Notes: generated from the letters alone by a model not told the origin. A DNA stretch of 64,000 nt from Candidatus Daviesbacteria bacterium (GCA_016176335.1 JACOXI010000003.1:113104-177103); one strand, 5' to 3'. Positions 5,139-47,134 are shown, counted from the first letter of the stretch. Translations and numbers: made by a program.

Positions 5139-6290
5139 ATGTCCAAGGTTAATAAAATTCTCGCAATAATATTTTTATTTAGTTTTGGCCTACTGGTTTA
5201 TTTCCCTCAGACAGTAGCGGCAGCCAATTGTCCCTTTACTTTTGATCCTCCTGTACCTTACCAAAATATGGGTGATTTATCGGTAACTATTACACCTCGT
5301 GATATAAAAAGTGGAACTTACCAACTTGTGACTTACAAAGGAAATATCTCCAAACCTGAAATAAATACACGTGGTGATATTCAATTAATTACAGGAAAGG
5401 CTGTTACCACTCAGCTCAAAAAACCACTCTCTGGATGGGAAGCAGGCACTTACACACTCTACCTGAGAGACCGAGATGTTGAGGGTAGTGTTCAAGATGT
5501 GGCTGCTTGTAAAACAAGCTTTTCCTTATCAGATATCCCAGCCCAACCTACATGTACGGCTAGTATAGAAACAAAACCAATTGATCCTGATACTAAAGTC
5601 GTATTAAAAATCTCCGATATTGCATCAGGTAATTACGATATATTAATAAATAATGAGTTTGCCGAGACATATAACACAAGTACCGGTGAAACAGTGTTTT
5701 TATGTAAGGGTGGAACTGAAGATAAGAATTGCAAATTTAATGTTGGTACCTATACAGTCACTATTAAAAACCAATGCGGATTCGGCGATTTCACTTGCAA
5801 AAGCCGGCTGCAGTGCAAGCCAGTAGCTTTCCAGGTTGCTCCTTTAGGAAGTGCTGGAGGTGGGCAGGTAGATACAACTCAAGTAGGGACTGCGACTACA
5901 AAGCAATGTAAAAGTAAGGATGATCCAACTTTCAATAAGAACACCGATATGGTTTGTGCTCTAGCTGGAGGGATTCCATGCGAGAATAAAAACGATGGCA
6001 GAGGACCAGCTTTTGCTACTGCCATTGGCTGTATTCATACCTCTCCTGTTGAATTTATCAAGGACTTTTTAAAGTTTATCTTGGGGATTTCCGGAGGATT
6101 GGCATTTTTGATGATGCTTTTGGGAATATTTCAGATGCTGACTTCTGCCGGTAATCCGGAGACTTTATCAGCCGGCAGGGACAGGTTGCAATCTGCCGTC
6201 ATAGGACTTTTGTTTGTAATTTTTGCTGTTCTTCTGCTTCGAATTATTGGAGTTGATATACTGGGACTGGGAGGACAGTTTGGTTTATAA
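5139..6290 (+). CDS. Secreted Cys/Thr-rich protein with C-terminal VirB2/TrbC-like pilin domain (candidate pilus-tip adhesin or major pilin precursor)
   Basis: Signal peptide (MSKVNKILAIIFLFSFGLLVYFPQTVAAA) and many Cys. The C-terminus (GIFQMLTSAGNPETLSAGRDRLQSAVIGLLFVIFAVLLL) carries the same motif as the five small pilin-like proteins downstream. Confidence 0.65.
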   Translation: MSKVNKILAIIFLFSFGLLVYFPQTVAAANCPFTFDPPVPYQNMGDLSVTITPRDIKSGTYQLVTYKGNISKPEINTRGDIQLITGKAVTTQLKKPLSGWEAGTYTLYLRDRDVEGSVQDVAACKTSFSLSDIPAQPTCTASIETKPIDPDTKVVLKISDIASGNYDILINNEFAETYNTSTGETVFLCKGGTEDKNCKFNVGTYTVTIKNQCGFGDFTCKSRLQCKPVAFQVAPLGSAGGGQVDTTQVGTATTKQCKSKDDPTFNKNTDMVCALAGGIPCENKNDGRGPAFATAIGCIHTSPVEFIKDFLKFILGISGGLAFLMMLLGIFQMLTSAGNPETLSAGRDRLQSAVIGLLFVIFAVLLLRIIGVDILGLGGQFGL

Positions 6291-6299
6291 TTTAAACCC

Positions 6300-6617
6300 A
6301 TGGAAAAGCTTGGTGATTTATTAAAAGATTCCGGTGTGCCAAACTTTAGCGGTCAAAATGCCAAACTTGGAGTACTTTTATCCGGCCTTTTAAACATAGC
6401 TTTTTATATTGCTGTTTTTTTGGCTTTTTATTGGCTGGTGTGGGGGGCTTGGGCTTATCTTTTTGCTTCAGGTAAAAAAGAAGACCTGGCCAAAGCACGG
6501 GCGCGAATCAGTTGGGCCTTAATAGGGTTAATTGTGATCTTTTTGGCTTACTTTATAGCCAAATATGCTTCGGAGTTTTTCCCAACACAATTTGGTAAAG
6601 GAGGAGGACCGTTTTGA
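6300..6617 (+). CDS. VirB2/TrbC-like pilin paralogue 1
   Basis: 105 aa, two TM helices. Family motif WGAWAYLFASGKKEDLAKARARISWALIGL (family consensus [WF]GAFxW[ML]TSGG(x)7AR(x)2I(x)2AxIG). Confidence 0.6.
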   Translation: MEKLGDLLKDSGVPNFSGQNAKLGVLLSGLLNIAFYIAVFLAFYWLVWGAWAYLFASGKKEDLAKARARISWALIGLIVIFLAYFIAKYASEFFPTQFGKGGGPF

Positions 6618-7018
6618 GAGAATTTAGAATTAAGCTTTTTTTGAATTATTTTTTTATAGCTTTATTCTTGATTCTTACAGCTTTATTCTTACCAATCCCT
6701 GCTTATGCTGCATCTCCTGCTCCCGGGGTAGATATTAAAGAGTATTTTGGTTTTGGAAATATTGGCTCTTTGGGGGAAGGGACTACCAGACTGGTGGAGC
6801 CGGCTTTTCAGTTAACAGCAGCAGTGGTGGTGATCTACTTTCTTTTGGGGGCATTTAAATACTTAAGGGCAGGTGGCAACAAAGAGGAACTGGAGGGTGC
6901 AAGGCAAATGATTATCCATGCCATTATTGGGTTTATAATACTCATGTTTGCTTTTTTGGTGTTACAGTTTATATTATCGAACTTGTTTAAAGTAACTGAT
7001 TTTCAGATAATAGGGTAA
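6614..7018 (+). CDS. VirB2/TrbC-like pilin paralogue 2
   Basis: 134 aa. Signal peptide, then GAFKYLRAGGNKEELEGARQMIIHAIIG. Overlaps the previous gene by 4 nt (operon). Confidence 0.6.
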   Translation: MREFRIKLFLNYFFIALFLILTALFLPIPAYAASPAPGVDIKEYFGFGNIGSLGEGTTRLVEPAFQLTAAVVVIYFLLGAFKYLRAGGNKEELEGARQMIIHAIIGFIILMFAFLVLQFILSNLFKVTDFQIIG

Positions 7019-7020
7019 TT

Positions 7021-7353
7021 ATGGATTTTTCAAAAAATTTCGGCTCTATTAGTCCCCCGCCTGCTATAAAAGATTTTATTGGCAGTGACCCAACAGGCGC
7101 AGGTGGAATTAGTCAGTTTTTAAGTAATCTTGTGACCCTGATTTATGGTTTAGCTGCCATAGTTTTGCTTTTTATGATCCTTTGGGGAGCTTTTGACTGG
7201 ATGACTTCCGGAGGGGAAAAAGAAAAGTTAGAATCTGCCAGAAATAAAATCATCAGTGCCATAATCGGCATCATGCTTTTTGCAGTGGCTTTTGCTATCA
7301 TCCAGGTTTTAGGCCAATTTACAGGATTTACATTTTTCGTCGGCCAAAAGTGA
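7021..7353 (+). CDS. VirB2/TrbC-like pilin paralogue 3
   Basis: 110 aa. WGAFDWMTSGGEKEKLESARNKIISAIIG. Confidence 0.6.
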   Translation: MDFSKNFGSISPPPAIKDFIGSDPTGAGGISQFLSNLVTLIYGLAAIVLLFMILWGAFDWMTSGGEKEKLESARNKIISAIIGIMLFAVAFAIIQVLGQFTGFTFFVGQK

Positions 7354-7410
7354 CCCTAATTCAACCAGCACTTGACAAGTAGTTTATACTTTGAATAAGA
7401 TTAAGACATT

Positions 7411-7785
7411 GTGAAAAAATTAGTTGTTTTATTATCAACCATTATTGCGCTTGTAGCCCCCAAGATAGCCTTTGCCGCTACTCCACCACCAGTTGTTGTT
7501 AGTCCTCCTCCTCAAGGATATCAGAATTTGGGAAATTTTATTACCCAAGCCATCACTTTGATTTTCGGGTTCGCCATTCTGGTAGTTTTGGTCATGCTGG
7601 TTTGGGGAGCATTTGAGTGGATTACCTCCGGAGGAGACAAGGAAGCTGTTGGCAAAGCCAGAAATAGAATTATTAATGCTTTGATAGGATTGGCTGTGTT
7701 GGCTGTGGCATATGCCCTGACAAAAGTGGCTGCAGATTTTGTAGGCATCAATCTTCTCAATATCACAATACCCGGACCGCCATAA
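7411..7785 (+). CDS. VirB2/TrbC-like pilin paralogue 4
   Basis: 124 aa, GTG start. Signal peptide AFAATPPP. WGAFEWITSGGDKEAVGKARNRIINALIG. Confidence 0.6.
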   Translation: MKKLVVLLSTIIALVAPKIAFAATPPPVVVSPPPQGYQNLGNFITQAITLIFGFAILVVLVMLVWGAFEWITSGGDKEAVGKARNRIINALIGLAVLAVAYALTKVAADFVGINLLNITIPGPP

Positions 7786-7830
7786 TTTTTCTATTTGATC
7801 TTTACAGCCTCTTAATGTTAACCTTAAAAT

Positions 7831-8145
7831 ATGGGTCCTGATGCAGCCGGATTAGATCAGATTGAGCAAGTTTTTACAAGTGTTATATCTGTGATGGTAG
7901 GTTTGGGGTTTGTGGCGCTTTTGGTACTTTTGGTTTTGGCCGGGTTCAAATACCTGACCTCCGGAGGAGAGCAAAAAGCTGTACAGCAGGCTCATCTAAC
8001 AGTTACCTGGGCGCTTTTGGGAATACTTTTTATGGCCATTGCCTGGCTGCTGCTGCAGCTTATTGAAAACTTTACCGGAATAAAAGTCACTACTTTTGAT
8101 ATTAAAAGTTTGTGTGAAGTTGGTGGCAAGCAATTTTGTAAGTGA
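7831..8145 (+). CDS. VirB2/TrbC-like pilin paralogue 5
   Basis: 104 aa. AGFKYLTSGGEQKAVQQAHLTVTWALLG. Confidence 0.55.
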   Translation: MGPDAAGLDQIEQVFTSVISVMVGLGFVALLVLLVLAGFKYLTSGGEQKAVQQAHLTVTWALLGILFMAIAWLLLQLIENFTGIKVTTFDIKSLCEVGGKQFCK

Positions 8146-8216
8146 ATTGTTCCAGCAAGAATTCACTTGACAGTTTAATTTAAAACAACTTAATCTTAAG
8201 TTAGGTAAAAAACCTC

Positions 8217-9529
8217 ATGAGGGAACACTGGCAACCAACCATAGAAGCTAATCGGCCACCAAACCAGCGTGATTTGCTCACACAACTACCCAGACCACTT
8301 CGAATAGTTTCTGCTGCTTTATCAGCAGCCATCAGTTTAGCACTGGCTGCCTGTGGGCCTACCCCTGCGCCTACCCCTAAACCTAGTCCTGAACAACCAG
8401 GATCATCGCCTGCTGTGGCAACTAAAGTTGAGACCCCCCCTCCGCAAGGATTCTGCCTTTGGATGGAGAGGTATATTTTACACAAGGAACTCATCCTTCA
8501 GACGGTTCTTCTACTGGTATCAAAAGTGGCATTGACTTGGCCCCCAAAAGAGTGGTCAATTGTGCCTTGGGAACTAAAGCTTTAGTAGAGGAGCAAGCCG
8601 CCCTCGCTACTGCCTCCGGCATACTCACAATTGTAGGAAACGAGAAAGATGCCAATGACCCAAATCACAGTATTGTGGAAATACAAGAGAGTGGCACTGG
8701 ATTACGGTTCGGGCTGATGCATTTGAGTCAATTACCCGACCATGTCCAAGTTGGCGGTAGGGTCTTAGCAGGAGCCCCTATTGGTAAATCTTCTTGTGAG
8801 GTCCCGAAAGGAGGCAAGACTACCGGAGTCCACCTACACCAGTATGTCAAAGATAAAACGGGTAAATATCTTCCTATTAATGGATTCACTTTTTCCGGGT
8901 GGAGAGTTGCGGGAGACACTATGACTAAGGGGAATGAAAAAAGAGTGGCAGATCAAAGACGCTGCGCCACTGATCAAGCCTGTGGCGGAATCAGGAATGA
9001 TTTAGGAACATTTTGGAGGAGTTCAAAGAGTGGTCTAGTAGACTCTGTGAAAGTCGATCCCCTACCCACAGTTACTCCTACAAGAATAGTCCCAAAATCG
9101 CCACCTCGGCAGGCAGAGTCTATCCCTACCACCCCATCCGCAGCAGCTAGGTTATTCATCCAAGCACTCGTTTCTGGGGACAGCAACAAAGCCCTGCAAT
9201 TGATGCCAGTTCCTGGTCAGGCTACATACAAAGCGGTTATGCTTGGCATTTCAGATGCACTTCGTGCATGTTCAGGGAGCGTCACTGAAGCGTCACACGG
9301 TCTTCGAAGTTACTATAATATTAGTTTTACTCCTTCATGTGGAACATTTGGCAGTTATTACGACGCGCTGCCGTCACATGATGTTGGTAATGTTAAGGCG
9401 GCATTCGCGTTGCTTGGACAAATCGACCCCTTGCGTAATCGACGTTTGGTTGGATGTACGGTAACAGTCATGTCAGTCAATGACCAATGGAGGATTATGT
9501 ACTTACCTACATGCCTACCGTCTCAATAA
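8217..9529 (+). pseudogene. Lipoprotein M23-family (LytM-like) peptidase, split by a +1/-1 frameshift at a C7 homopolymer (8434-8440)
   Basis: Frame 0 encodes a lipobox signal (ISLALAACG) and a Pro/Thr linker. Frame 2 opens at 8432 and encodes M23 motifs (GIDLA...GTKALV; GVHLHQY). The two frames meet exactly at a cccccccc tract. The segment looks GC-richer than its neighbours. Confidence 0.55.
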
Positions 9530-9601: not shown

Positions 9602-11395
9602 ATGATACTTAGAATCAAGCGATTAGAATTAAGCAAAGCTTTCCTTTCGCATTTGCAAAACGTAAGAATTAAGCTTTTTGTATTCTTTATGCTTACTGCT
9701 TTATTCTTTTTGCTTATTCCTACTGCTTTTGCCCAAACCTCTACCCCCAGTGCAGTGCAGTCTACTGTCTACAGTCTACCGTCTACTGTCCAGCCCACCT
9801 CCCCTCTTTATACCGACCTTTTGGTAAATAATATGTTTCATACTTTTTCCTGTCTGGCTGTGGGGTCTTCTGTCATTGGCCAGCCATGTTTAACTTACCA
9901 GATGACCCAAAATGCCCAGGGTATGCTGCAAGGAGTACCTGTTTTATCCCAAACTAACCTGTCAGGAGGGGCTTTGGGGGCCACCACCTCTTTAATTGGC
10001 ATGTTGTATCTTAATCCGCCGGTTCGAACAGCTGATTATCTGGCATCTTTGGGAGAGCAGTTTGGAGTGGTAAAAGAAGCCCGGGCACAAGTTGGGGGAT
10101 CAGGAGCCCAGGTTTTAAGTCCAATTTTAAACCTTTGGCAGGTATCAAGAAATATATCTTATGTGATTATGATCATTATTTTTGTGATTATTGGGCTGAT
10201 GGTGATGTTTAGACAAAGAATCAATCCCCAAACAGTCATTACTGCCCAGGCAGCCCTTCCTGGATTGGTAATCGGCTTAATCTTAATTACTTTTAGCTAT
10301 TTTTTGGCAGGACTGATATCAGATACGGCATTTGTGGGAACCAATGTTGTGGGATATTATTTCTCTGCAGCACAGGGTATCCCTCCACAAAATTTGGTTG
10401 AAAATATGAAAGATAAGAATGTTTTGAGTATTTTCAGCCCGCTGACGGGAATTATTGACAAAGATAATGCCGCTAGTGCGCTGAGTTCTATATGGAACGG
10501 CTTAAGCGACGGAGCACAGCGCTTATTAACACTGTTGGCTATGTTTGTAACCGCCCAAACAATTTTGCAAGGCACAGAGTTTCTAAAGCTGATCAAAACC
10601 TTCGGAGAGCCCATTCAAGCGGCACTTACCACTATAGCAGTAGGCGCTACTTTGGCTAATCCTACAGCTCTTATAGGGCTTGCCTTAGCCTTTATAGCAA
10701 CTGCTGTATTGCTTTATTCCATGTTCAAATTATTGTTACGCTTAATCAATAATTATATAACCATCATATTTTTGACAATTACTGCTCCTTTCCAATTCCT
10801 GGCTGCATCGTTGCCTGGAAGACAAAGCATAGCCACAGGTTGGATCTTAAATATGCTTTGCAATGTTTTGGCATTCCCGGCGGTTTTTGCCGCTCTTTAT
10901 TTCGTGGCTTTTATTTTGGGACCAAATGTTGATGCTGTGAAAAAGCTACCTTTTCAAACCACTACCACTTCAATAACCGGAACTTCCACATTTCCTCTTT
11001 TTGGAGGTTTGGATCTTAACTTTATTAATATTCTTCTGGCATTTGGAGTTTTAGTGGCACTACCCAGTATCCCGGATATAATTTGCCGGACAATCGGCAG
11101 GGTGGGGGTAGCAGGACAGCTGATTGGCCAGGAAATTGGGGGCGGCATTGGCCAAGGCAGACAATATGCCGGTCAATTCCAGCAGGGCGTAGGAGCTGCC
11201 AGCGGTCAATTAGCCAGAGCCAGAGGCTTGTTTAATACTCCTGGGTATAAAATGGAGTTGATTCCCGGCACTATTGATCAATATAGGATTGTAGAAACAT
11301 ACGAGGCGGGAAGGGGTGCTACTTTTGGAGCTTTGACTAGACAAGGAATTCGCAAACCACCAAAATTAGAACCAGGCGTCAGGTCGGGAATATAA
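9602..11395 (+). CDS. VirB6/TrbL-like polytopic membrane protein of the type IV secretion-like system
   Basis: 597 aa. Signal peptide, periplasmic segment, then 6 or more TM helices. Gly/Gln-rich C-terminal tail. Its position after the pilin genes is typical for VirB6/TrbL. A possible later start is M at 9689. Confidence 0.55.
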   Translation: MILRIKRLELSKAFLSHLQNVRIKLFVFFMLTALFFLLIPTAFAQTSTPSAVQSTVYSLPSTVQPTSPLYTDLLVNNMFHTFSCLAVGSSVIGQPCLTYQMTQNAQGMLQGVPVLSQTNLSGGALGATTSLIGMLYLNPPVRTADYLASLGEQFGVVKEARAQVGGSGAQVLSPILNLWQVSRNISYVIMIIIFVIIGLMVMFRQRINPQTVITAQAALPGLVIGLILITFSYFLAGLISDTAFVGTNVVGYYFSAAQGIPPQNLVENMKDKNVLSIFSPLTGIIDKDNAASALSSIWNGLSDGAQRLLTLLAMFVTAQTILQGTEFLKLIKTFGEPIQAALTTIAVGATLANPTALIGLALAFIATAVLLYSMFKLLLRLINNYITIIFLTITAPFQFLAASLPGRQSIATGWILNMLCNVLAFPAVFAALYFVAFILGPNVDAVKKLPFQTTTTSITGTSTFPLFGGLDLNFINILLAFGVLVALPSIPDIICRTIGRVGVAGQLIGQEIGGGIGQGRQYAGQFQQGVGAASGQLARARGLFNTPGYKMELIPGTIDQYRIVETYEAGRGATFGALTRQGIRKPPKLEPGVRSGI

Positions 11396-11420: not shown

Positions 11421-14400
11421 TTAAAGAGCCATCTTATCAAATAACCACCCAGCCCAATCTCGACCATCAAACTTTTTGACCCATTTACCATCTTCAGATA
11501 CAAAATAGTAATACGGCTGCCTAAGTAATTTGTAGATTTCTGCCTCACCTTTATATGCCTGCACTCCACCTCCGGGCCCTTTATCCAGCAGCCAGTCTAC
11601 ATAAGCATTCCAAAACATTCTGGCAATATGCCTGGAACTCCCGGTATTCCTCTCCTTTTCTAGGGCTATAGCCGGATTAAACCTGCCATCCGGTAAAAAG
11701 ACATCTGTTTTCCTCAAATCCAATGCTCCGCCGGCATTTCTACTATCCGAGTACATTGTTCTAATAGTTTTTAATGTGTCCCAAACTCTGCCAAAAGAGT
11801 CCAATAGTATATGAAACACTTCTGTTTCTCCTTCAGGCTTCTGCAAAGCATCAGTTAATTTCTGCCTTATCTCTAACACTTTTTCAGCATTATTGGTTGG
11901 TTTCATAAATAACCCTTCATGATGAAGCCCTGTTTTAGGATCAATCCCACCAATCAAAGCAAACCACAAGGAGGTACCGCTATCCATCAGGTTAATAAAT
12001 TTAGTAATAGCAAACTGGCTGGCTATTCTTTGGCCTGTTAGTTCGTGAATTTTATCATCCATCATTGAAACAGCTCCTATTACTCCTTTGCGTCCTAAAT
12101 TACCAGCCATGGTGTCTGCATGTATAGGAGCCGCAGAGAGTGCTGCGGTAAATCTTCTGGCCCATCTTTTAGGCATTTTGGCAACTAAGGCTTCGATTTG
12201 CAAAGCAAACCTGAACTCCCCTCCTTGATCCTCTGTATAGTACCCAGTACCCATATATTCCGCATTACCATCCTTAGGTAAAAATCGTTCCTTGAAAGCA
12301 TCTCTGACATTGACCCAACCCAAAAGTGACTCTTCAACTGCAGCATCAAAAACAATCCCCTCTAAAGTCATCTGTTCTCCGGGAAACGCTTTGACCCTGC
12401 ATAAAGTCGGGTCCAAAGTCAAAAGTAACCCTGCGAGAATATCTGCATCTTCTGGCCGTATTAGTCCATCCCTGATTTGCCTGGCCTGGTCAAACACATA
12501 ATCAGGCAAAAGGGTATGGGTATTGTTGCTTTGATAAGCAAAATAGGTGTGGGCAGTATGTAAGGCTAAATAACTGTCTGCTGCAGTTGGGAAATCCAAA
12601 TCAACTTCTTCAGTAAAAACACCGACAACAACACCTTCCCCGTCATTACGTTCTGTTAACACATATTCACCTTTATAAATTTGGCTGTCCAGATTGACGC
12701 GCTGACGTTCCTTTCCTCCTGGTTTATCATAGACAATAGCTTTACCCAACTCATCAAAATCGCTCTCGCCTAAACCCACAGGTCTGCCATCTTGGCCAAA
12801 AACAATAATAGGTTGACCGTTTCGGGTGTAACCGAAAACATGCGGTCTTTTTAATTTTATTTGGCTAAGAGTAAGCGGTTGAGGTTCAACCTTCTCGGGC
12901 TTTAAATTACCGTCCTTATCGAAATAATCTAAGTAATCAGCTGCATAATCAGCATCAGAAAATTTTGCCGCAAAGCCTTTTTCACTAACCGCATCTAGAG
13001 CCCTTTCAAGCGCCTTCTGCACCATAGCTGACCTATATCTGGCTCTAAAGTTACCGTGCTTACCTTCGTCGTCTTTTTCATCCAGTCTTTTTTTAAAGTC
13101 CGGTTCATCCCAGATAGGCGAGTCGTCTCTGTATTTCATCCTAGTCCAATTCACCACAGCCATAACAGTCTTTTGAGCTAAATGAGCGGGTATTTGATCA
13201 ACAATTCTTTCCCTATCTTCCGGACTTAATCCGTTATATAAAGCTTGTTCCTCTGGGGAGAAAGTATCTCGTCTTTTACCCTTTGATATTCCATCCAAAA
13301 TCCACCCGATATGTTGATCCCTCGTAAATGTTGTTTTTCTTTTTTCAAGCGACCATTCGCTAATATCAGGATCTTCAGCTTTTTGATCCTTATGATTCTT
13401 TTGCCGGAACTTTAGGTACTCCCGGACGTATTTATTTCTCTCAATAAAGTAAACTGCTCCGCCTCTGATAGTTGTTTCATGAGTTACACCTTGCATCTGC
13501 ATAGCAACTTCAAAGCTGGCTTCTGAGATGGCATAAGCTTTCTCATATCGTTTCTTCTCTTTTTTTGTAATTCGTTTTAGACTCACCAATTTATCAATTA
13601 ACGTTTCCTTTCTTCCTAGAATTATTGTCCCTGTTCTAACTTCCTGCCTCAACGTATCCATCAAGACTTGAATCTTCCCTAATTTCACAGAATCCCGTAA
13701 TCTCTTAGGAAGACGGTCCGGATCTATACGTCTTTTACCAACATATTCCTGATAGTTGTTTCTATGAACATCACCGTTATCAAAACCTTCATACAAAGCC
13801 TTAAACGCCTCAGCAGATTGATGAATACCTATCCGCTCCTGATTAGTCCTGGTATGTAATTTTGCTTGCAAATAATATTTCCGATCTTCTTCCGTTAAAC
13901 TTTCCAAGTCATCATCATTTCTTTTAAGATGCTCATCGAGCTGCTCCAGGAATGTTGCTCTGTCTAAGCGTAATTTAGGATCAGAGTCAATCTCTGCATC
14001 ACGCCAGTCATAGTCTTTTAAGACAATACCTATTCCTCTTTCTTTCAATCTTTCATAAGTGATTCTTCTAATATACTCATGTACTTGAGTACTGTCTCCA
14101 AATTGTCCTCTTGAACCTTGGGCATTAAGAGCAAATTCTACCATTGCCAAATTATCCAGATTCCACGTATGAAATCCTACCCCTCCCTCTTCCCCTGAAC
14201 GGAGAGCTCTGGTCCATCTTTCCGGTCCTTCATGCATGGCCATGGCCATCGCACCCTGTTTAGCGCCTTCCTTGTTGTAATGCTCACTGTTATAAAAAGT
14301 GTGCCACAGGAAAGCCCTTCCTTCAAATTCCTGCCTCAACTCTTTCATAAAGCCAGCTGTCATCTTATCCGGCACATCATCCATACCTTCTTGCTCTAAT

Positions 14401-16283: not shown

Positions 16284-16564
16284 ATTCCCTGTTTTTCAAG
16301 CCAAGCAACCGCTTCCTCTCCGGTTTTAAATGCCGGGGATGTTCTGCCTGCCTTCCAATCTTTCTCTGCTTGGCGGATAGCGTTTTTTAAGTACTCGCTC
16401 GGTTCTTCATCTCTGGCGCTAAACTCCACAGACTTTGTCCTAATAAACTGTTTTAAGAATGCCTTAATGACAACAGATAAAGGCATGCCAAGCGCTTCAG
16501 CTGTGGCTTGGGCTTCTTTTTTAGTTTTGGGGTCAACTTTGGCAACAACTACTGCATAACTCAT
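16280..16564 (-). CDS. dinJ: DinJ/RelB-family antitoxin
   Basis: 94 aa. N-terminal ribbon-helix-helix region (MSYAVVVAKVDPKTKKEAQATAEALGMPLSVVIKAFLKQF) typical of DinJ. Forms an operon with the toxin. Confidence 0.75.
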   Translation of the reverse strand: MSYAVVVAKVDPKTKKEAQATAEALGMPLSVVIKAFLKQFIRTKSVEFSARDEEPSEYLKNAIRQAEKDWKAGRTSPAFKTGEEAVAWLEKQGI

Positions 16565-16607: not shown

Positions 16608-17963
16608 CTAAATTAACGTCCCATTGCATACATAACACTTTTCAGTGCAGTAATTTACCTCTCCACAACTGATACAGCTTTTACCTTTCTTGCCTGCTTC
16701 TCCTCCAAAAACACTGCTTATGCTTCTAACTATTCCTGAAATCAAATTGCCGATCTTACTGGCAATACCTCCAACTGAAAATCCTGCTGATAATCCGCAT
16801 CCTCCTGCAACTACCCTGACTGCCTGATAACCCAGCCAGTTAACCTTCTCTTCCAAAGTCTTAAAAATAGGCATGATTTTATTTACAATTTTAGATGTCA
16901 TGCTTACCACTTTATCTTTTATACCAACTAAACCCTCCCAAATATAATCTGCTCCATTCAAAACAGCATTTAGGGCAACTTTTACCTGCTCGGGTGCAAA
17001 AACTGATCCACATATTCTATCTACCAAACAATGTATAAGGTCTGAACTCCCCTGGGCAATTTTTTGAAAACCCTCTTCTTTTAAAGCATTTTTCCTTTGT
17101 ATTAAGATCTCACCGCTACTTTCAAAAATAGGATTAGCCAGCAACCACTGATCTTTTGACCCTACCCTTCCATTAAAATAATCCGGTCTTGAAGCGGTTA
17201 TCATCTCTTCTGCCTGCTCATAACTTAAGTCTGAGGCAAAACGAGTCATTTGAACTATTCTTCTTCGAGTAAATGGGTCTTCTAAAAGCTCGTAACGATC
17301 CAAGAAATTATCAGTGAATATAGTACCTTCTACTAAACCAGGCCCTGAGATAACTTCAACTTTTAAATCTACTGGGGCGTTTGGATCTGCAAAAGCTTTC
17401 TGTATTTTTACAATACCAACCTTCTCTTGTTCTATTCTTGGAACATCATGTGATCCCATTTGCCTGTAATATTCAATGCCAACTGTTAAAACGTCTTCAA
17501 AAGCTTGATTGGGTAAATCCCTACTTCTTAACTTGCCATCATCATCAATATCATAAATAACAATACTGGTGGCTACATGGTAGCGTTCTCTTAGAGCAGT
17601 TTCTATCTGCTTTATTTCATGAAGTTTAAACTGTTTTCTTTCTTCTTCGGTTTGCAGAGTCTCAAACATTGCTCTTTCTAAAACAGGATTATAATTTCTA
17701 ACAGGCCCTCTTGCTTTTGTTTCTAAACTTCCATCAAATTGATTTTGTAATCTTGCTACTCTTGCTAAATATTCTTCAGTATCGAGTTTTTGTGTGTTAG
17801 AAACCCCTGTAGGGGGTAAGATTCGCTCGATTGGTCGCGCAATAACTATTGTATTATTAAAAGGGGAAACCTGTTCTCGTCTACCTCCTACATCCGGTTG
17901 AATTAAAATATCTAACTGCTTAAGATTTGGGGGTGTTAAATGTTGAAGTGTCTCTACTGACAT
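16608..17963 (-). CDS. Hypothetical 451-aa protein with Gly-rich segment and C-terminal Cys4 zinc-ribbon-like tail (CISCGEVNYCTEKCYVCNG)
   Basis: Long ORF. SD-like AGGAG lies 4 nt upstream of the ATG. No recognisable enzymatic motif. Confidence 0.7.
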   Translation of the reverse strand: MSVETLQHLTPPNLKQLDILIQPDVGGRREQVSPFNNTIVIARPIERILPPTGVSNTQKLDTEEYLARVARLQNQFDGSLETKARGPVRNYNPVLERAMFETLQTEEERKQFKLHEIKQIETALRERYHVATSIVIYDIDDDGKLRSRDLPNQAFEDVLTVGIEYYRQMGSHDVPRIEQEKVGIVKIQKAFADPNAPVDLKVEVISGPGLVEGTIFTDNFLDRYELLEDPFTRRRIVQMTRFASDLSYEQAEEMITASRPDYFNGRVGSKDQWLLANPIFESSGEILIQRKNALKEEGFQKIAQGSSDLIHCLVDRICGSVFAPEQVKVALNAVLNGADYIWEGLVGIKDKVVSMTSKIVNKIMPIFKTLEEKVNWLGYQAVRVVAGGCGLSAGFSVGGIASKIGNLISGIVRSISSVFGGEAGKKGKSCISCGEVNYCTEKCYVCNGTLI

Positions 17964-17974
17964 ATTGCTCCTGC

Positions 17975-18060
17975 AACGGGACCCTTCGACTACGCTCAGG
18001 GTAAATTGTGGTCGGTCTCCTGGCTCTTCGACTCGCTTCGCTCGCTCAGAGCTATAGCTT
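17975..18060. repeat. R2 GC-rich motif cluster upstream of the 451-aa gene
   Basis: Minus-sense reads TCTGAGCGAGCGAAGCGAGTCGAAGAG ... CCCTGAGCGTAGTCGAAGGG, directly before the RBS and ATG. Confidence 0.55.
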
Positions 18061-18163
18061 ACCGAATCACAGTTGCGGCACAGCCCCGGACTTACACCGG
18101 GTTCCCTTTTTGTATCTTCTCCCGCTTAAAGGCGGCATGATACACCACGTTTTAAGAATAACA

Positions 18164-18262
18164 ACTCAAAACTCAAATGTCAAAACTCAAAATTACAAAT
18201 CAAATCTCAAAACTTTTTAGATTTAAGATGTAGATTTGCGATTTGAGATCTAAGATTGAGAT
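18164..18262 (+). repeat. Dispersed ~100-bp repeat R1, copy b
   Basis: CTCAAAACTCAAATGTCAAAACT ... GATGTAGATTTGCGATTTGAGATCTAA. Matches 15-118 and the reverse complement of 45630-45735. Lies about 80 nt upstream of the gene at 18341. Confidence 0.55.
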
Positions 18263-18340: not shown

Positions 18341-19384
18341 ATGGAATCGCACCCAATCCCACAAAATGTCACCACTTTCCAGTTCCACCTGGTTGGGGAT
18401 ATGACCTTAAAGCAATTTATATACCTTGCCACAGGCTCCGGATTAGCCTATTTTGTGTTTATTTTTTTTGTGGCGGATTATCCATATTTTGCTTGGCCGC
18501 TGATCTTGACTGCTGCCGGGTTGGGAACAGCTTTTGCCTTCTTGCCTATAAATTCCAGACCATTGGATTATTGGACTGCAGCTTTTTTAAAAGCAATTTA
18601 TTCACCCACCAAAAGAGTCTGGAAGAAAAATAATAAATCTTACCAGGAAGATCCTACCTTTAACAGCAGGCTTTTCACATATTTAGCAGGTCTTCAGCCT
18701 ATTCAACAGCAACCTGTACCTCCCGTCTATAATCCACCGCATGTTGCAAAGTCTGTCACCGCAGAAGCTCCACCCCTGCCCACCCCCGAACAGTTGGGAA
18801 AAACAGTTGATCTGGCAAGACAGGCACAAAACCTGCAAATGAAAATAATCCAAACCGAGCGAACCCTAAATCAGATTAAGACAGCCGCACAAAGTCCAAC
18901 CCAAATACCTGTTGATTACACGCAACAAGTTAATACCGTGCTGTCAGATTTGCAAAATCTGGTCACCCAAGCATCTCAAATCAAACAACAGATTGAGTTT
19001 GTTCATCAGCCTGAACCTACAAACACCCTTCCTTTGCCAATTGCCCCAAGGCCGAAGGTGACAGTAATTGTTCCTACCAAAGCAAAAGTGACCCAAGTGG
19101 CCCTGACCACATTCCCCAATGTCATAAACGGCATAGTTAAAGATGCCAATGCCAATTACCTGGAAGGAGTGGTGGTGGTAATTTATGATAAGGAAGGATT
19201 GCCTGTCAGAGCGCTGAAAACAAACAAATTAGGTCAGTTTACAGGTTCTACCCCCTTGCCAAACAGTATTTACACTGTTGAGCTGGAGAAAGATGGATTT
19301 GCTTTTGATGTTTTGCAGGTTGAATTAACAGGCACAACTTTACCGCCTTTAACAATTACGGCAAAGGGGCCGGGAGTTTCCTGA
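18341..19384 (+). CDS. VirB3/PrgI-like membrane protein with extended Gln/Pro-rich C-terminal region
   Basis: N-terminal pair of TM helices (LAYFVFIFFVADYPYFAWPLILTAAGLGTAFAFL) resembles the VirB3/PrgI family. Lies immediately upstream of the VirB4 genes. Function is inferred from position and topology. Confidence 0.4.
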   Translation: MESHPIPQNVTTFQFHLVGDMTLKQFIYLATGSGLAYFVFIFFVADYPYFAWPLILTAAGLGTAFAFLPINSRPLDYWTAAFLKAIYSPTKRVWKKNNKSYQEDPTFNSRLFTYLAGLQPIQQQPVPPVYNPPHVAKSVTAEAPPLPTPEQLGKTVDLARQAQNLQMKIIQTERTLNQIKTAAQSPTQIPVDYTQQVNTVLSDLQNLVTQASQIKQQIEFVHQPEPTNTLPLPIAPRPKVTVIVPTKAKVTQVALTTFPNVINGIVKDANANYLEGVVVVIYDKEGLPVRALKTNKLGQFTGSTPLPNSIYTVELEKDGFAFDVLQVELTGTTLPPLTITAKGPGVS

Positions 19385-19385
19385 A

Positions 19386-20135
19386 ATGAGTACAACGCAA
19401 CAACATCTGTCCATATCTGACATCAAAGACAATATAATTTTGCTAAAAGACGGCGGCGGGGCCTTGGTTTTGCAAATTTCCGCCGTAAACTTCAGGCTTC
19501 TATCTGAACGTGAGCAAATTGCCATCATCAGTAGCTTTGCCCAAATGTTAAACTCGCTTTCTTTTTCTATCCAAATCCTAATTTTTTCAGAAAGATTAAA
19601 TATCAACTCTTATCTTGTGCTTTTGGATAAAGCCCAAAAATTACAGTCTAATCCGATGCTTTCCAATATGATCATAAATTACCGCCAGTTTATCCAAAAT
19701 ACCATCAAGGAAAACGAGGTCCTGGATAAAAAATTCTATCTAGTGATCCCGCTTTTTAATCTGGAGCTGGGGCTTGCACCCACCAGAGTTATTTTGCAAC
19801 AAAAAATCAAAACCATACTGCTTCCCAGAAGAGATCAAATAATAAGACAGCTTTCAAGAGTGGGGCTGGCAGCAATCCAACTGAACACAAATGAGCTGAT
19901 TGAACTATTTTATGATATTTACAATGGCCAGTTTGTGGAAAGTATGGCCTCAAAGCCAATTAGCGCCGATACAATGCAGGTCCAATTAAACCAACCTCAA
20001 GAGGCTGTTAAAACTTCAACATACAAATCTCAAGTTGTTGATCAACCCCAAGCTCCGCTACAACCAAGCCCTGCTACTACCCAGTCATCAAGAACACACC
20101 CGTTTGTGGTGGAGGAGTTAGATGAAAATACCTAA
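19386..20135 (+). CDS. VirB4 N-terminal-domain-like protein (no ATPase motifs)
   Basis: SISDIKDNIILLKDGGGALVLQISAVNFRLLSEREQ resembles the N-terminus of Gram-positive VirB4/TraE/PrgJ homologues. Overlaps the next ORF by 14 nt in a different frame. Confidence 0.45.
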   Translation: MSTTQQHLSISDIKDNIILLKDGGGALVLQISAVNFRLLSEREQIAIISSFAQMLNSLSFSIQILIFSERLNINSYLVLLDKAQKLQSNPMLSNMIINYRQFIQNTIKENEVLDKKFYLVIPLFNLELGLAPTRVILQQKIKTILLPRRDQIIRQLSRVGLAAIQLNTNELIELFYDIYNGQFVESMASKPISADTMQVQLNQPQEAVKTSTYKSQVVDQPQAPLQPSPATTQSSRTHPFVVEELDENT

Positions 20136-21879
20136 TCCTTTTAAAAAACAACCTGACGAGCAATCCACTCCTACCCAACTAACTATTGAGGATGTGCTTG
20201 CTCCGCAGGAGATTGAGGTTGATTTCCATAACTTAAGGATCAATGACCGTTTTTTTAGGACTTACTTTATCTCCAATTACCCGCGGTTTGTGGAACCGAA
20301 CTGGCTGGAGCCAATAATATCTTTTGATCACTCGCTTTTGATATCGATGTTTATATACCCTTCCCAATCTGCCGGTGTATTGGATGATTTAAAAAGAAAG
20401 ATTGCCGAGATGGAAGCAACAATACAAACGGATTTTGAGCGGGGAAGAGCCATAGACCCGTCTGTTGAGGTGGCTTTGGAAGACGCCAGGGGTTTACAGG
20501 AACAGTTGGTCAAAGGGGTTGAGAGATTTTTCCAGTTTGCCCTTTATGTGACCATTCCCTCCGCAAGCTTAGAAGAATTACACAATACCTCAAAACTGGT
20601 TGAATCAACGCTTGCATCTTTATCTATGAGCGCAAAAGTGACATCTTTGCAGATGGAAGACGGGTTCAAATCAACTCTCCCGCAAGGAACGGATTTGTTA
20701 AATCTAACCTATAATATGGACACTACCTCCTTGGCAACAACCTTTCCTTTTGCCTCATCGGAGCTGACAGCTAATGAAGGTATTATGTATGGAATCAACG
20801 AACATAATGATTCGCTCATACTTTTTGACAGGTTTAGCTTGGAGAACGCCAATTCTGTGATTTTTGCCAAAGCCGGAGCCGGGAAATCATATCTGGTTAA
20901 ACTTGAAGCCTTACGTTCTTTGATGTTTGGGACGGAGATTATTATCATCGATCCTGAACAGGAATACTTACCTTTATCGCAAGCTGTGGGAGGAGAATTT
21001 ATTAACTTTTCCGCCTCATCTCCTATTAAAATAAACCCGTTCGACTTAAATCCGCAACTGGCATCCGGTGAAAATGAGTTGGGGAGGAAAATTCTATCTT
21101 TGACCGCATTCTTAAAACTGGTTTTGGGTAATTTAAGCGCAACAGAGGCGGCAATACTGGACAGATCCTTAAAACAAACATACCAGCAAAAGGGAATTAC
21201 GGATGATCCTAAAACGCAAGATCGACAACCACCTTTAATGGAGGATTTGTACAAAGTTTTAATGGGCATGGAAGAACCATCTGCCCTGGAACTTGCGGCA
21301 AGATTGGAAAGATTTATTAAAGGCTCTTTGACCGGAATATTTTCTGCCCAATCAAATGTGGCAATTGCCAATGCCTTTACGGTTTTTTCGGTCAGAGACT
21401 TGCCGGACCAACTACGACCTTTGGCAATACACATGATTTTGGAGTATGTTTGGACCAAAATAAGAAGCAGGCTTAAAAAAAGAATCCTGATTGTTGATGA
21501 AGCCTGGTATCTGATGAGAAATGCTGACAGCGCAGATTTTTTGGTGGATATGGCCAAAAGGTCAAGAAAATACTATTTGGGTTTAACCACTATAACGCAG
21601 GATGTTGAGGATTTTTTGACAACGGAGAGAGGAAAAGAAATCATCTCAAATTCCTCAATTCAAGTTCTTTTAAAACAAGCGCCTGTTTCAATTGACCTTT
21701 TGGCCAAGGTGTTTAATCTGTCCGAGGGCGAACAAAGACTGCTGCTGTCAGAGGGAATAGGACAAGGATTGTTTTTTGCAGGCAATACTCATGTTGCCAT
21801 GAGAGTGGTTGCCTCACCGAAGGAACACCAACTCATCACCTCAAACCCGCAAGAGATTTTGGCAAGACAAAGTGTTTAA
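20122..21879 (+). CDS. VirB4/TraE-like conjugal-transfer-type ATPase
   Basis: Walker A FAKAGAGKSY and Walker B ILIVDEAWYLM. The N-terminal YFISNYPRFVEPNWLEPI motif is typical of VirB4. Confidence 0.75.
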   Translation: MKIPNPFKKQPDEQSTPTQLTIEDVLAPQEIEVDFHNLRINDRFFRTYFISNYPRFVEPNWLEPIISFDHSLLISMFIYPSQSAGVLDDLKRKIAEMEATIQTDFERGRAIDPSVEVALEDARGLQEQLVKGVERFFQFALYVTIPSASLEELHNTSKLVESTLASLSMSAKVTSLQMEDGFKSTLPQGTDLLNLTYNMDTTSLATTFPFASSELTANEGIMYGINEHNDSLILFDRFSLENANSVIFAKAGAGKSYLVKLEALRSLMFGTEIIIIDPEQEYLPLSQAVGGEFINFSASSPIKINPFDLNPQLASGENELGRKILSLTAFLKLVLGNLSATEAAILDRSLKQTYQQKGITDDPKTQDRQPPLMEDLYKVLMGMEEPSALELAARLERFIKGSLTGIFSAQSNVAIANAFTVFSVRDLPDQLRPLAIHMILEYVWTKIRSRLKKRILIVDEAWYLMRNADSADFLVDMAKRSRKYYLGLTTITQDVEDFLTTERGKEIISNSSIQVLLKQAPVSIDLLAKVFNLSEGEQRLLLSEGIGQGLFFAGNTHVAMRVVASPKEHQLITSNPQEILARQSV

Positions 21880-21894
21880 TGATACTCTACTAAT

Positions 21895-24135
21895 ATGGCT
21901 GGTCAAGATGTTAATTTTTATAAATATCTAGAAGCTGCTTTTAGGTTTAAATTATTTAATCCCGAAGGTCAAAGAGCCGGTTTTGATACTCATTTTAATC
22001 ACTTAAATTATAACCTGACTTACAAGCAGATTTTCTTTTATGCCAGAAAAATTCTGCCCAAATTTTATACCAGTGAATTCCCCGATACTGAAGAAGGTAA
22101 TCTGCAAATGGCCAAAAAGGTTTTGGAACAGCTGGACAAACATCAAGATACCCAGCTTGAGAATCAATTTAAATCAGTTACTGTTTCAGAGGAAAATACT
22201 CAAATCATAACTGAAGCGCAAGCACAGTCACAACAAACTGAAGCGATATCCACACAAACACCAGTTGGTACATCCGAAGGTATGATGAGTGGGCCAGGTT
22301 TACCTTCTGCTCCATCTAAATCTTTCGGGCCGCGGCGTGTTTTTATTGCCAACCAGACCCCTCCACCTGCAGGAGGCATGGAGGGAGGAATAGGCCAAGG
22401 CACGGCTGCTACTAATAAAGCAAATGCCAAAGCAAGCAGGCTGGAAGCTGAAACAAACCGGCTAAATGTGCAAACTGCTGCTCCCCGAAGATTTAACTGG
22501 GGTGGCTTTAAAATACCTGCCTCATTTACAAATGCAGCCAAAAATTTTGGTTCTGAGTCCCAAAGATTTATCGGTACAAATTTAGGGAGAATTGGCAAGG
22601 GTCTTGGAGAAATAGCCGGAGGATTAGGCAGAGGGATTGCCGGCCCTGCTCTTACCGGTACATACAATCTCCTGGGAAAAGCAGGCAGTGGCAGCCTTAA
22701 TGCTTTTGAAAGAATAACCAGACCAGGAGGCACAGGAGGAGGCGGAATAGGCAGAGGATTATCCAAATCCTCAAACAAATTAGCCTGGGGTTTGATCGGG
22801 ATAATGTTGTTTTTTGTCTTATTCGGCAGTATGTTAGGCGGCCTGGCAGGAACTACACCCACCGGTCAAGCCAGCCCAATTGGATCCATTGGATCTTTTG
22901 ATATTAGTAGTTGTAAATTTACAAGAGGCCAAGAAAATCCCAAAGAAGCCACTTTTAAAAGCAATAAACTTCTTTCGTATATTCAAGAGGCATCCCAAAA
23001 ATCAAACATCCCTCCTGCAGTACTTGCAGCCTTTATCAGGGTAGAGTCCCCCTCTTCATCCAATATGTCAGACGATCAGATTTCCAATTATTCTGCAAAT
23101 TGTGTACAAAGCTCTACAGGAGCACTGGGAATTATGCAGATCCAACCTTCTGGTACAACTTCTGCTAGAGGAGACCCGGCAAGTTGCGATGACTGCATTG
23201 ATGCGGGAGCCAAACTGATGGGTAAAACTGTTTCCACTATGACTAGGCAGGATTATTGTGATCCAAGAACAAATATCATTGTAGGAGCTGGTTGGATTTT
23301 AAAAAAAATGAGCAAATTAGGTTATGGCGATAGCACAAAATGGGATACTGCATGGACTAATGACAGAAAAGCAATTGAAGCCTTGGTCAATACTTACTAT
23401 GGATGCTTGCAATATGGAGACGCAACAAAAGACTGCGCCGGCCCCTATAACTATGCCGATGATGTTTCCACTAGTATCCAAAACTGCCAAGCGCAATCCC
23501 AAACAGTTCCGCCCCCACTAGCAGATGGAAATTATAAAAAATGGGTTCAGGATTTTGGAATCAATATTAATGACGGCTTTGTGCCGGATGTTTATAAATG
23601 GGCTTATGAAGTTTTAGCTTCTACATCTAGTATAGCGCCCAAATTTAAAGACCGCCTGGGTAGTACTCTCATTGAGATCAAACCAACCTGCGATATTTCC
23701 AAAACTAGCGGACGGATAATCTTTCTAAGAAATAAAATTCAATTCTGTCCCGGAGCAACTAAAGATGGGCCAACCGCTGATGAAAAACTGTTTAAACAAG
23801 TCTTTATTCACGAACTGGGACATATTATTAATGGATCATCCAGACCAGGCAAATATGGAGATCAAATCAAACAAGCTATTGCTGCTGAGGGATATCTCAC
23901 TGCTTATTCTCAAAAAGCAGCTACTGCAGATGATGAAATCTGCGGAGCCGCCGACTTAAATACCAGAGCTGATGAAGACTTTGCAGAAAGTATCTCTTAC
24001 TTTGTTAACCAAGGAATCAAAGAACAAGATTATGGGTGTGGTACAAACCTTAATCAAAACCCCATCTATGCTCAAGATAACAATCATCCTTTATACCTTA
24101 AGCATATTCAACTAATGATTGATTTGTTAAGATAA
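21895..24135 (+). CDS. Bifunctional cell-wall hydrolase: Gly-rich region + TM + lytic transglycosylase (SLT) domain + C-terminal HExxH metallopeptidase-like domain (VirB1/PrgK-type role)
   Basis: SLT signature ES...GALGIMQIQP, and FIHELGHIING. Position directly after virB4 matches T4SS-associated muramidases. Confidence 0.65.
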   Translation: MAGQDVNFYKYLEAAFRFKLFNPEGQRAGFDTHFNHLNYNLTYKQIFFYARKILPKFYTSEFPDTEEGNLQMAKKVLEQLDKHQDTQLENQFKSVTVSEENTQIITEAQAQSQQTEAISTQTPVGTSEGMMSGPGLPSAPSKSFGPRRVFIANQTPPPAGGMEGGIGQGTAATNKANAKASRLEAETNRLNVQTAAPRRFNWGGFKIPASFTNAAKNFGSESQRFIGTNLGRIGKGLGEIAGGLGRGIAGPALTGTYNLLGKAGSGSLNAFERITRPGGTGGGGIGRGLSKSSNKLAWGLIGIMLFFVLFGSMLGGLAGTTPTGQASPIGSIGSFDISSCKFTRGQENPKEATFKSNKLLSYIQEASQKSNIPPAVLAAFIRVESPSSSNMSDDQISNYSANCVQSSTGALGIMQIQPSGTTSARGDPASCDDCIDAGAKLMGKTVSTMTRQDYCDPRTNIIVGAGWILKKMSKLGYGDSTKWDTAWTNDRKAIEALVNTYYGCLQYGDATKDCAGPYNYADDVSTSIQNCQAQSQTVPPPLADGNYKKWVQDFGININDGFVPDVYKWAYEVLASTSSIAPKFKDRLGSTLIEIKPTCDISKTSGRIIFLRNKIQFCPGATKDGPTADEKLFKQVFIHELGHIINGSSRPGKYGDQIKQAIAAEGYLTAYSQKAATADDEICGAADLNTRADEDFAESISYFVNQGIKEQDYGCGTNLNQNPIYAQDNNHPLYLKHIQLMIDLLR

Positions 24136-24143
24136 AACTTACA

Positions 24144-24611
24144 ATGAGGCAAAAAACAATAGTTATATTGGGGATTTTGGGAGCGATAATTTTACTGTTA
24201 ATCTCTCAAAAAGTTTTGCTTGTCAGACCGATTTCTCTTCCATCCGGCACCCAGCCATCATCAACGCCTTCCCAGAACTCAACTCAACCAAATGAATCCC
24301 CCAAAATTTTATCCACCAAACCAGATCCTTTGGATCAGGCTGTTATATCATCGGATCAGCAGATTGAAATTGTATTTAACAGAGGCTTGGAAAACGAGGG
24401 CGAGTTTAAGATCAGAATAGAACCAAAAGTAAAGTATAAAATAACTCTTTCCGGGGATCATAAAACCGCCAAAATTACCCCAGAGGAATCATATGAGCTG
24501 GGAGTTGGCTACACCATGTTTATCACAGGAGATACCAAATTCGAAGGTGTGGGGCCTTGGGGGGAGGAAAAAACCTTCCATTTCCAAACCATAAAATACA
24601 GAGGTATCTAA
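24144..24611 (+). CDS. Small membrane-anchored protein with Ig-like beta-rich ectodomain
   Basis: 155 aa. N-terminal TM anchor and a Ser/Thr/Pro linker. Last gene of the + strand T4SS-like block. Confidence 0.5.
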   Translation: MRQKTIVILGILGAIILLLISQKVLLVRPISLPSGTQPSSTPSQNSTQPNESPKILSTKPDPLDQAVISSDQQIEIVFNRGLENEGEFKIRIEPKVKYKITLSGDHKTAKITPEESYELGVGYTMFITGDTKFEGVGPWGEEKTFHFQTIKYRGI

Positions 24612-47130: not shown

Positions 47131-47134
47131 ATTT

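Follow-up and report, generated by a model that had tools for sequence, protein, structure and literature searches.

We analysed a locus at positions 5139–24611 of a 64 kb window, the whole stretch of DNA considered here, from Candidatus Daviesbacteria (class Microgenomatia). The original prediction for this locus described a type IV secretion system (T4SS) in two same-strand halves, one rich in pilin genes and the other built around a VirB4 ATPase, separated by about 7 kb of opposite-strand genes. Open reading frames (ORFs) were scanned against Pfam (all of at least 300 amino acids (aa) and most of the smaller ones), and positions are given in window coordinates with the strand as + or −. For synteny we used 83 related loci, in which genes were mapped by BLAST and ORF calling. 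Three of these (L001–L003) were reached through the VirB6-like protein and belong to Daviesbacteria relatives (VirB6-like identity of 78, 65 and 59%), and the other 80 (L004–L083) were anchored on VirB4 at 60–86% identity and are Microgenomatia wherever their labels are informative. Many of the related metagenome-assembled genomes are labelled 'uncultured Gammaproteobacteria' or 'Pseudomonadales' despite Microgenomatia-type loci; these labels look placeholder or wrong.

Genes and chromosomal setting of the secretion locus

The downstream half of the locus opens with a gene for a PrgI/VirB3-like protein (18341–19384, +) that has two transmembrane (TM) segments (residues 26–45 and 50–68), a C-terminal beta-sandwich domain and a CarboxypepD_reg match (E 5e-6). 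Its match to PrgI (PF12666) spans positions 1–90 of the 91 in the profile at 26.8 bits (cut-off 27), and its orthologues in L001–L003 carry PF12666 in precomputed Pfam, the L001 match being at unmarked level. The following gene encodes a 249-aa TrsD-like protein (19386–20135, +), a homologue of the VirB4 N-domain that matches positions 108–280 of NF045975 (E 1.2e-8) and, under the subfamily cut-off, TrsD NF041427 (E 2.9e-5); its orthologues in L001–L003 carry PF26593 (TraC-like), and sequence and profile searches of PDB with it returned no significant match. This gene overlaps by 14 nucleotides (nt) a gene for a 585-aa VirB4-type ATPase of the MPF_FATA/CD1110 kind (20122–21879, +), which scored 383.6 bits against NF045971 (cut-off 325) and contains a TraG P-loop domain (PF19044, 82.5 bits), a Walker A-like motif (AGAGKS) and a Walker B motif (ILIVDE) at residue 455. 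The ATPase aligns with positions 180–734 of NF045971 only, so that the N-terminal ~180 model positions are missing. Because the TrsD-like protein matches the N-terminal part of the model and the ATPase covers the remainder, we read the pair as a VirB4 split into TrsD and ATPase. The PrgI–TrsD–VirB4 order is contiguous wherever upstream sequence exists (78 of the 83 loci).

Two more genes follow on the same strand. One encodes a VirB1-like wall hydrolase (21895–24135, +) with a TM segment (residues 295–321), an SLT transglycosylase domain (28.5 bits vs 21.3) and a C-terminal HExxH region, with HELGH at residue 639 and a weak match to the NF038122 metalloprotease model (E 0.0096). The other, the final gene of the operon, encodes a 155-aa membrane-anchored Ig-like protein (24144–24611, +; Big_5, 26.4 bits vs 23.6; TM segment at residues 1–33) that is kept at 40–62% identity in Daviesbacteria-level loci. 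Every component that had been proposed for this half of the locus, namely a VirB3/PrgI-like protein, a VirB4 N-domain protein, a VirB4 ATPase, an SLT and HExxH hydrolase and a small anchored protein, was thus recovered.

The upstream half begins with six pilin genes. All six products scored above the Pfam gathering cut-off for T4SS_pilin (PF18895; 28.2–43.1 bits vs 26.6) and each contains a two-helix hydrophobic hairpin, which upheld the proposal of six VirB2/TrbC-like pilins. Pilin 1 (383 aa; 5139–6290, +) carries its T4SS_pilin domain at the C-terminus (residues 302–369, 34.9 bits), behind a signal/TM segment and a large N-terminal extension that contains Cys, with hydrophobic segments at residues 1–29, 309–335 and 348–381; the arrays of relatives are also headed by a long first pilin. 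The remaining members are pilin 2 (105 aa; 6300–6617, +; 37.4 bits), pilin 3 (134 aa; 6614–7018, +; 34.6 bits), whose gene overlaps that of pilin 2 by 4 nt, pilin 4 (110 aa; 7021–7353, +; 43.1 bits), pilin 5 (124 aa; 7411–7785, +; 36.7 bits), which has a signal peptide and also matches TrbC (PF04956, E 0.0027), and pilin 6 (104 aa; 7831–8145, +; 28.2 bits). Pilins 2–6 also match NF045849, a model of a pilin-like protein of Mycoplasma integrative and conjugative elements (ICEs), with E values of 7.6e-6, 2.7e-4, 4.7e-7, 3.2e-7 and 6.7e-7, respectively. Pairwise identity of the six pilin domains is 18–43% (mean 28%). This divergence, together with the large extracellular extension of pilin 1, may diversify surface or host specificity. 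A HicA/HicB pair (4595–5146, −) lies at the edge of the locus upstream of pilin 1 and is variable among relatives.

The last gene of the upstream half encodes a 597-aa polytopic membrane protein with ~7 hydrophobic segments (9602–11395, +), and in Daviesbacteria-type loci it lies 3′ of the pilin array. The protein is 100% identical to a Candidatus Daviesbacteria protein on a 456,706-bp contig, and its family is large (3,223 representatives at E<=1e-3). When 37 close and 44 distant proteins of this family were scanned against Pfam, the TrbL signal was not usable: just one of the 44 distant ones matched TrbL (E 0.009); weak matches to TrbC and TcpE within the family probably reflect TM hairpins and were set aside. 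An AlphaFold2 model reached a predicted local distance difference test (pLDDT) score of 68, and the region following the first helix (residues 40–172) was poorly modelled. Its best structural match was R388 TrwI/VirB6 (PDB 8rt9, 8rtd and 7o3v), which is likewise polytopic and encoded with pilin genes, although there is no sequence similarity and the protein studied here is ~2x longer. The case for a VirB6/TrbL-like protein is therefore weaker than first put forward: the protein is polytopic and has a sub-significant fold match to TrwI/VirB6, but profile searches returned no match. We regard it as the best VirB6 candidate of the locus, a reading that leans on the structural model.

An M23-like lipoprotein gene follows pilin 6, ahead of the VirB6-like gene, and is frameshifted (8217–9529, +), with two ORFs in different frames. 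A LAAC lipobox signal is in the first ORF (8217–8585) and the M23 domain in the second (8459–9529), where it scored 22.4 bits (Pfam cut-off 28.7). A run of seven C residues lies at 8434–8440, and one additional C would join the two frames. Misassembly, gene decay or phase variation could each account for the split. Thus the predicted lipoprotein M23 peptidase has its lipobox and an M23-like domain, but neither a single intact ORF nor a score over the cut-off. In L001–L003 no M23-like gene separates pilin 6 from the VirB6-like gene, and the GC content of the gene described here is 46% vs 40% for the window; the gene is accessory and lineage-specific.

The locus is chromosomal and origin-proximal and is not a mobile element. 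In the Pfam scan, dnaN, a Holliday-junction-resolvase-like nuclease gene and dnaA follow on the opposite strand (24608–27660, −), with dnaN overlapping the last T4SS gene and dnaA 0.6 kb beyond, and the minimum of the cumulative GC skew falls at 24–26 kb of the window. The locus is flanked by SpoIID/SmpB-side housekeeping genes and by dnaN/dnaA, and the remaining scanned genes are also housekeeping (YidC, LeuS, MetG, GroEL, MurB, TsaD etc.). In nearly all sufficiently long related loci dnaN/dnaA lie on the minus strand 2–7 kb downstream of VirB4, and the locus keeps its position in dozens of species-level genomes whose VirB4 is 60–86% identical. No family match to a type IV coupling protein (T4CP), relaxase or integrase was obtained among the scanned ORFs, in agreement with the predicted lack of VirD4 and relaxase, nor were any competence genes found among them. 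The linked relaxase, T4CP and oriT that define a conjugative T4SS or ICE were likewise not found within the 64 kb, an oriT being definable only alongside a relaxase.

A system of this kind has been described. In a survey of 3,035 Patescibacteria genomes, Quinonero-Coronel et al. 2025 reported a monophyletic VirB4 clade within MPF_FATA, accompanied by TrsD, PrgI/VirB3 and PF18895 arrays of 2–11 genes (mean identity 25%) near dnaA/dnaN; pilin arrays were particularly common in Microgenomatia and Saccharimonadia (PMC12102498). The locus in Daviesbacteria has an MPF_FATA-lineage VirB4, a TrsD-like neighbour, PrgI, a PF18895 array and no clustered relaxase or T4CP. We consider it highly probable that it is a chromosomal, origin-proximal, relaxase-less, pilin-rich T4SS of this MPF_FATA-derived 'Patescibacteria clade', an assignment based on profiles and gene content rather than on VirB4 phylogeny.

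A conserved minus-strand block lies 5′ of the pilin array in Daviesbacteria (96–4537, −, in the window and likewise in L001–L003). It encodes a ~600-aa protein of no known family, a DUF5657 protein, a ~190-aa protein and a protein that combines a SpoIID domain with a PcsB-like coiled coil; in relatives, SmpB and tmRNA are found on the far side of the equivalent block. Genes for 23S rRNA-intervening-sequence proteins (PF05635) were seen at 46768–47325 (−) in the window and, in the relative L002, within the pilin array (7133–7489).

Minus-strand genes between the two modules

Directly downstream of the VirB6-like gene, and convergent with it, is a gene for a giant soluble protein of 1409 aa counted from a MAEGT start (11421–15650, −). 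The protein has no signal peptide or TM segment and no match in Pfam, NCBIfam or PDB, and all 21 of its 21 homologues are 'hypothetical' or unnamed. A convergent minus-strand ORF of 531–1582 aa lies directly 3′ of the VirB6-like gene, at a distance of −3 to +64 nt, in 38 of 38 Microgenomatia loci; in more distant lineages it is a gene of 560–850 aa that occupies this place. Identity of the giant protein to its positional equivalents is 75%, 23–28% or undetectable, next to 78, 65 and 59% for the neighbouring VirB6-like protein. Searches with jackhmmer joined these large proteins only within sub-clades (a Daviesbacteria cluster, an L036–L040/L046 cluster and singletons). By eye, most of them begin M-x-E-G...P-E, and the short forms have a hydrophobic C-terminal helix. 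Across Microgenomatia the giant gene thus evolves fast yet keeps its position as partner of the VirB6-like gene. Its product is the best candidate at the locus for a T4SS accessory factor or substrate, a proposal that we hold to be about evenly balanced.

A RelB/ParE-type toxin–antitoxin pair comes next (16005–16564, −; RelB E 8e-6, YafQ/ParE E 1e-4 to 2e-3). In relatives its site holds PIN/HTH_17, other small ORFs or nothing. The sites of the HicA/HicB and RelB/ParE pairs tolerate or attract toxin–antitoxin insertions, with relatives carrying different pairs or none.

The last of the intervening genes (16608–17963, −) encodes a 451-aa protein and is preceded by a cobalamin riboswitch, which the original prediction had not mentioned. 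The aptamer lies in the 5′ leader of the gene (17993–18164, −) and matches the full RF00174 model (positions 1–189) at 62.2 bits vs a gathering score of 31.5 (E 5e-13). A promoter-like sequence, TTGACA-17-TATTCT, is present upstream of the gene at 18183–18155, followed by AGGAG at 17972–17968 and the ATG at 17963. Because only 30 nt separate the end of the aptamer from the start codon, we infer control at the level of translation, and the B12-bound riboswitch probably represses translation of the 451-aa gene. An apparent pairing between the AGGAG sequence and the 5′ leader does no more than hint at translational control, and minimum free energy folding told us little about the leader (z −0.41). 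The element resembles known cobalamin riboswitches (RF00174 and AdoCbl-II RF01689) in its strong score, its location in a 5′ leader and its spacing of ~30 nt from the start codon. It differs from them in that the downstream gene is outside the known families of B12 transport, B12 salvage and B12-independent enzymes and in that the unit is embedded in a T4SS locus.

The 451-aa protein has a disordered N-terminus, a PAS-like core, a Gly-rich linker and a C-terminal Cys-rich zinc ribbon, with no signal peptide or TM segment. An AlphaFold2 model with the PAS-like core (pLDDT 76.6, predicted TM-score 0.71) had no significant structural neighbour, and no significant sequence or profile match was found in PDB. 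The RF00174 (class I) riboswitch is at the matching place in L001–L003, and a covariance model built in this analysis identified a cobalamin riboswitch in 28 of the 80 VirB4-anchored loci. AdoCbl-II (RF01689), a shorter class, is at the riboswitch site in four more loci and a sub-threshold AdoCbl match was seen in L017; seven more distant Microgenomatia loci had no riboswitch at the site. The riboswitch-adjacent gene is hypervariable except for a constant tail, consisting of G-[S/C]-C-[P/G], a Gly/Ser-rich linker and the Cys-rich zinc ribbon. This tail occurs in 35 loci, 33 of which have a riboswitch over threshold, one a sub-threshold match and one (L035) none, and riboswitch and gene are thus kept together in about 34 of 35 related loci.

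The riboswitch and its gene also occur as a unit in two further loci, L084 and L085. In L085 a SAM-I/IV riboswitch (583–698, −), at 41.6 bits just over its gathering score, is separated from the cobalamin-riboswitch gene by a gene of the phosphoglucomutase family (718–2124). In the reverse test, three homologues of the 451-aa protein, each on a long contig, were found away from T4SS genes, one among glycolysis genes, one beside a ribosomal-protein operon and one inside the dcw cluster, and two of the three had their own cobalamin riboswitch directly upstream. We had considered the riboswitch as a T4SS-specific regulator and dropped that idea once the riboswitch-plus-gene unit was seen at unrelated genomic sites. 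Because the unit occurs away from T4SS genes, the firm association is between the riboswitch and the 451-aa family, not between the riboswitch and the T4SS. The presence of the unit in the T4SS locus of Daviesbacteria may thus reflect inherited position rather than function, and it is more likely that the unit serves a B12-related function and merely resides at the locus. Our literature search found no paper linking cobalamin riboswitches with the T4SS of Patescibacteria.

Comparison with known systems and alternative readings

The closest described counterpart is the Patescibacteria-clade T4SS, of which the Southlakia epibionticum ML1 locus (SEML1_0006–0019) is the reference. The points of likeness are a VirB4 with a separate TrsD, PrgI/VirB3, six PF18895 pilins, a hydrolase gene 3′ of virB4, a cluster that lacks relaxase and T4CP, and a place beside dnaA/dnaN. 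Using transposon sequencing, Wang et al. 2023 found that epibiotic growth of S. epibionticum requires the equivalent locus, which has a pilin array, encodes neither coupling protein nor relaxase and probably has a non-conjugative role (PMC10633639); a 2025 review restates these points (PMC12857230). Such a role in host interaction has been proposed for the Patescibacteria T4SS (PMC10633639, PMC12102498). The gene content described here fits that published system, and the non-conjugative host-interaction apparatus that had been proposed for the locus is in keeping with it. The T4SS, including its non-conjugative reading, was already described for ultra-small Patescibacteria between 2023 and 2025, and the finding is not new. 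The locus does differ from the S. epibionticum reference in several respects. S. epibionticum belongs to the Saccharimonadia, whereas our locus is from Microgenomatia and is known from genes alone; the convergent giant gene, the toxin–antitoxin pair and the riboswitch gene separate the pilin/VirB6-like genes from the PrgI–TrsD–VirB4 module; and the VirB6 candidate is unrecognised by standard profiles.

Conjugative T4SSs of the MPF_FATA type in monoderms (pGO1 TrsD, CTn2/CD1110 VirB4 and pCF10 PrgI) share with this locus a CD1110-level VirB4 and homologues of TrsD and PrgI, and they too have none of the outer-membrane core components VirB7/9/10. They differ in having a T4CP and a relaxase, in transferring DNA and, according to reviews, in having no VirB2 pilins, whereas the Daviesbacteria locus has six pilins and no DNA-processing genes. 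The Mycoplasma ICE module offers another comparison, in that five of the six pilins match Mbov_0395 (NF045849; E 3e-7 to 3e-4) and the TrsD-like protein and VirB4 match the N- and C-terminal parts, respectively, of Mbov_0397 (NF045975). These scores are under the equivalog cut-offs and denote relatedness, not membership, and the Mycoplasma module belongs to a mobile ICE, has just one pilin-like gene and keeps VirB4 in one piece. Because both the pilins and TrsD/VirB4 match Mycoplasma ICE models, pilin-like proteins do exist on the MPF_FATA side, which suggests that VirB2-like pilins are not alien to this lineage.

By analogy with homologous systems, PrgI would anchor TrsD and VirB4 at the membrane. 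VirB4 and TrsD would then extract the VirB2-like pilins from the membrane and polymerise a filament on a platform formed by the VirB6-like protein, while the SLT/HExxH hydrolase would open a passage through the wall. The resulting pilus or conduit would contact a host cell and could move cargo other than relaxase-bound DNA to or from it, which would not be conjugation. Several observations weigh against assigning the locus to a relaxase-less T4SS of this kind. The 597-aa protein matches no Pfam, NCBIfam or PDB sequence, and its best Foldseek matches in PDB, the R388 TrwI/VirB6 chains, were sub-significant (E 0.023, prob 0.98, TM 0.20/0.36). The PrgI and M23 scores are just under their Pfam cut-offs in this genome. 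Our view covers 64 kb of the genome, which leaves room for a distant T4CP, and most T4CP homologues of Patescibacteria were far from virB4 in the 2025 survey (PMC12102498). Finally, pilus formation and substrate in Microgenomatia are argued from Saccharimonadia and from conjugative systems.

If the relaxase and coupling protein lay just outside the window, the locus would be an ordinary conjugative element, such as an ICE or a plasmid remnant. Its VirB4 does belong to a family named after conjugative elements (CD1110), and T4CP homologues occur elsewhere in many Patescibacteria genomes (PMC12102498), which a 64 kb view could miss. However, the flanks are housekeeping genes, the position is stable in dozens of species-level genomes, and integrase, relaxase and T4CP were not found in the ORFs scanned. 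Moreover, relaxases are present in just 103 of the 3,035 surveyed Patescibacteria genomes and are rarely close to virB4 (PMC12102498). We consider a conjugative element highly improbable. A DNA-uptake machine of the ComB/Ced kind, instead of a secretion or attachment apparatus, is also very unlikely, if a little less so. In its favour, the VirB4 of the locus has a weak match to archaeal CedB (E 1.3e-13, far under the cut-off), no relaxase was found, and the T4SS of the class ABY1 is located together with competence genes (PMC12102498). Against uptake, the ORFs scanned in our window included no competence genes, and deletion of comEC in S. epibionticum ends competence with viability unaffected, whereas its T4SS is essential, as described in a FEMS review (PMC12857230). 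Uptake, which had been offered as an alternative for this locus, is without positive support here and fits poorly with the comEC result.

Two further alternatives concern the minus-strand genes. According to one of them, which was part of the original prediction, a 7-kb minus-strand cassette inserted into an ancestrally contiguous locus and separated its halves. Consistent with such an event, the toxin–antitoxin pair differs among relatives, the unit of riboswitch and 451-aa-type gene is absent from several distant Microgenomatia loci and present elsewhere in genomes, and in Levybacteria-like loci, which retain the pair of VirB6-like and convergent genes, the pilin array is immediately 5′ of PrgI. 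Because the toxin–antitoxin pair varies and the riboswitch unit is absent or movable, at least ~2.3 kb of the block has the look of added accessory DNA. However, the VirB6-like gene and PrgI are adjacent in none of the 38 loci in which both are visible, the smallest gap (1,982 bp) corresponding to one convergent gene, and an equivalent of the giant gene follows the VirB6-like gene in every one of them. The Daviesbacteria order is also stable at VirB4 identities of ~77–86%, running from pilins, VirB6-like gene, giant gene (−) and variable small genes to a gene of ~300–535 aa (−), the riboswitch and PrgI (+). The only variable items are the toxin–antitoxin pairs, including HicAB upstream of pilin 1, and the M23 gene. 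A simple insertion fails because the largest intervening gene is the conserved partner of the VirB6-like gene; we regard a cassette insertion as quite unlikely and conclude that the intervening genes are mostly old, conserved neighbours and no recent insertion. According to the other alternative, the 451-aa and giant proteins are T4SS substrates or effectors tuned by cobalamin supply, which would couple host cofactor status to host manipulation. In about 34 of 35 Daviesbacteria-level loci their genes are nested between the two halves of the T4SS, their sequences diverge much more rapidly than those of the core machinery, and both proteins are without a signal peptide or TM segment. In addition, the 451-aa family varies along its body but conserves a module at the C-terminus (as judged by eye), as in T4SS effectors with C-terminal signals. 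Conversely, homologues of the 451-aa protein stand singly at non-T4SS sites, two of three with a riboswitch of their own, a substrate-recognising T4CP was not found in the ORFs scanned, and no fold or family evidence points to effector activity for either protein. We consider cobalamin-tuned effectors unlikely, although less so than a cassette insertion.

Implications for Microgenomatia

The system has been surveyed in about 2,400 genomes, and the locus is a typical representative for Microgenomatia; its T4SS assignment adds nothing to the 2023–2025 literature. VirB6 was described as 'scarce' in Microgenomatia (PMC12102498), and the widespread polytopic family of 3,223 representative clusters to which the 597-aa protein belongs is likely to be this 'missing' VirB6. 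Two modest new leads emerge, namely the family under riboswitch control and the conserved gene convergent with the VirB6-like gene. The product of the latter, which evolves fast, may be a substrate or an accessory factor of the T4SS. More broadly, the embedded minus-strand genes might not be passengers at all, with the convergent protein being an undescribed component or substrate of the T4SS and the riboswitch, in Daviesbacteria, tying the supply of host-derived B12 to the host-interaction machinery; we think this doubtful, while giving it somewhat more weight than the effector proposal above. Whether or not it is linked to the T4SS, the riboswitch points to a previously undescribed protein family under B12 control in bacteria that are unable to make B12, and this family provides a handle on cofactor sensing or acquisition by ultra-small episymbionts that have to scavenge B12.

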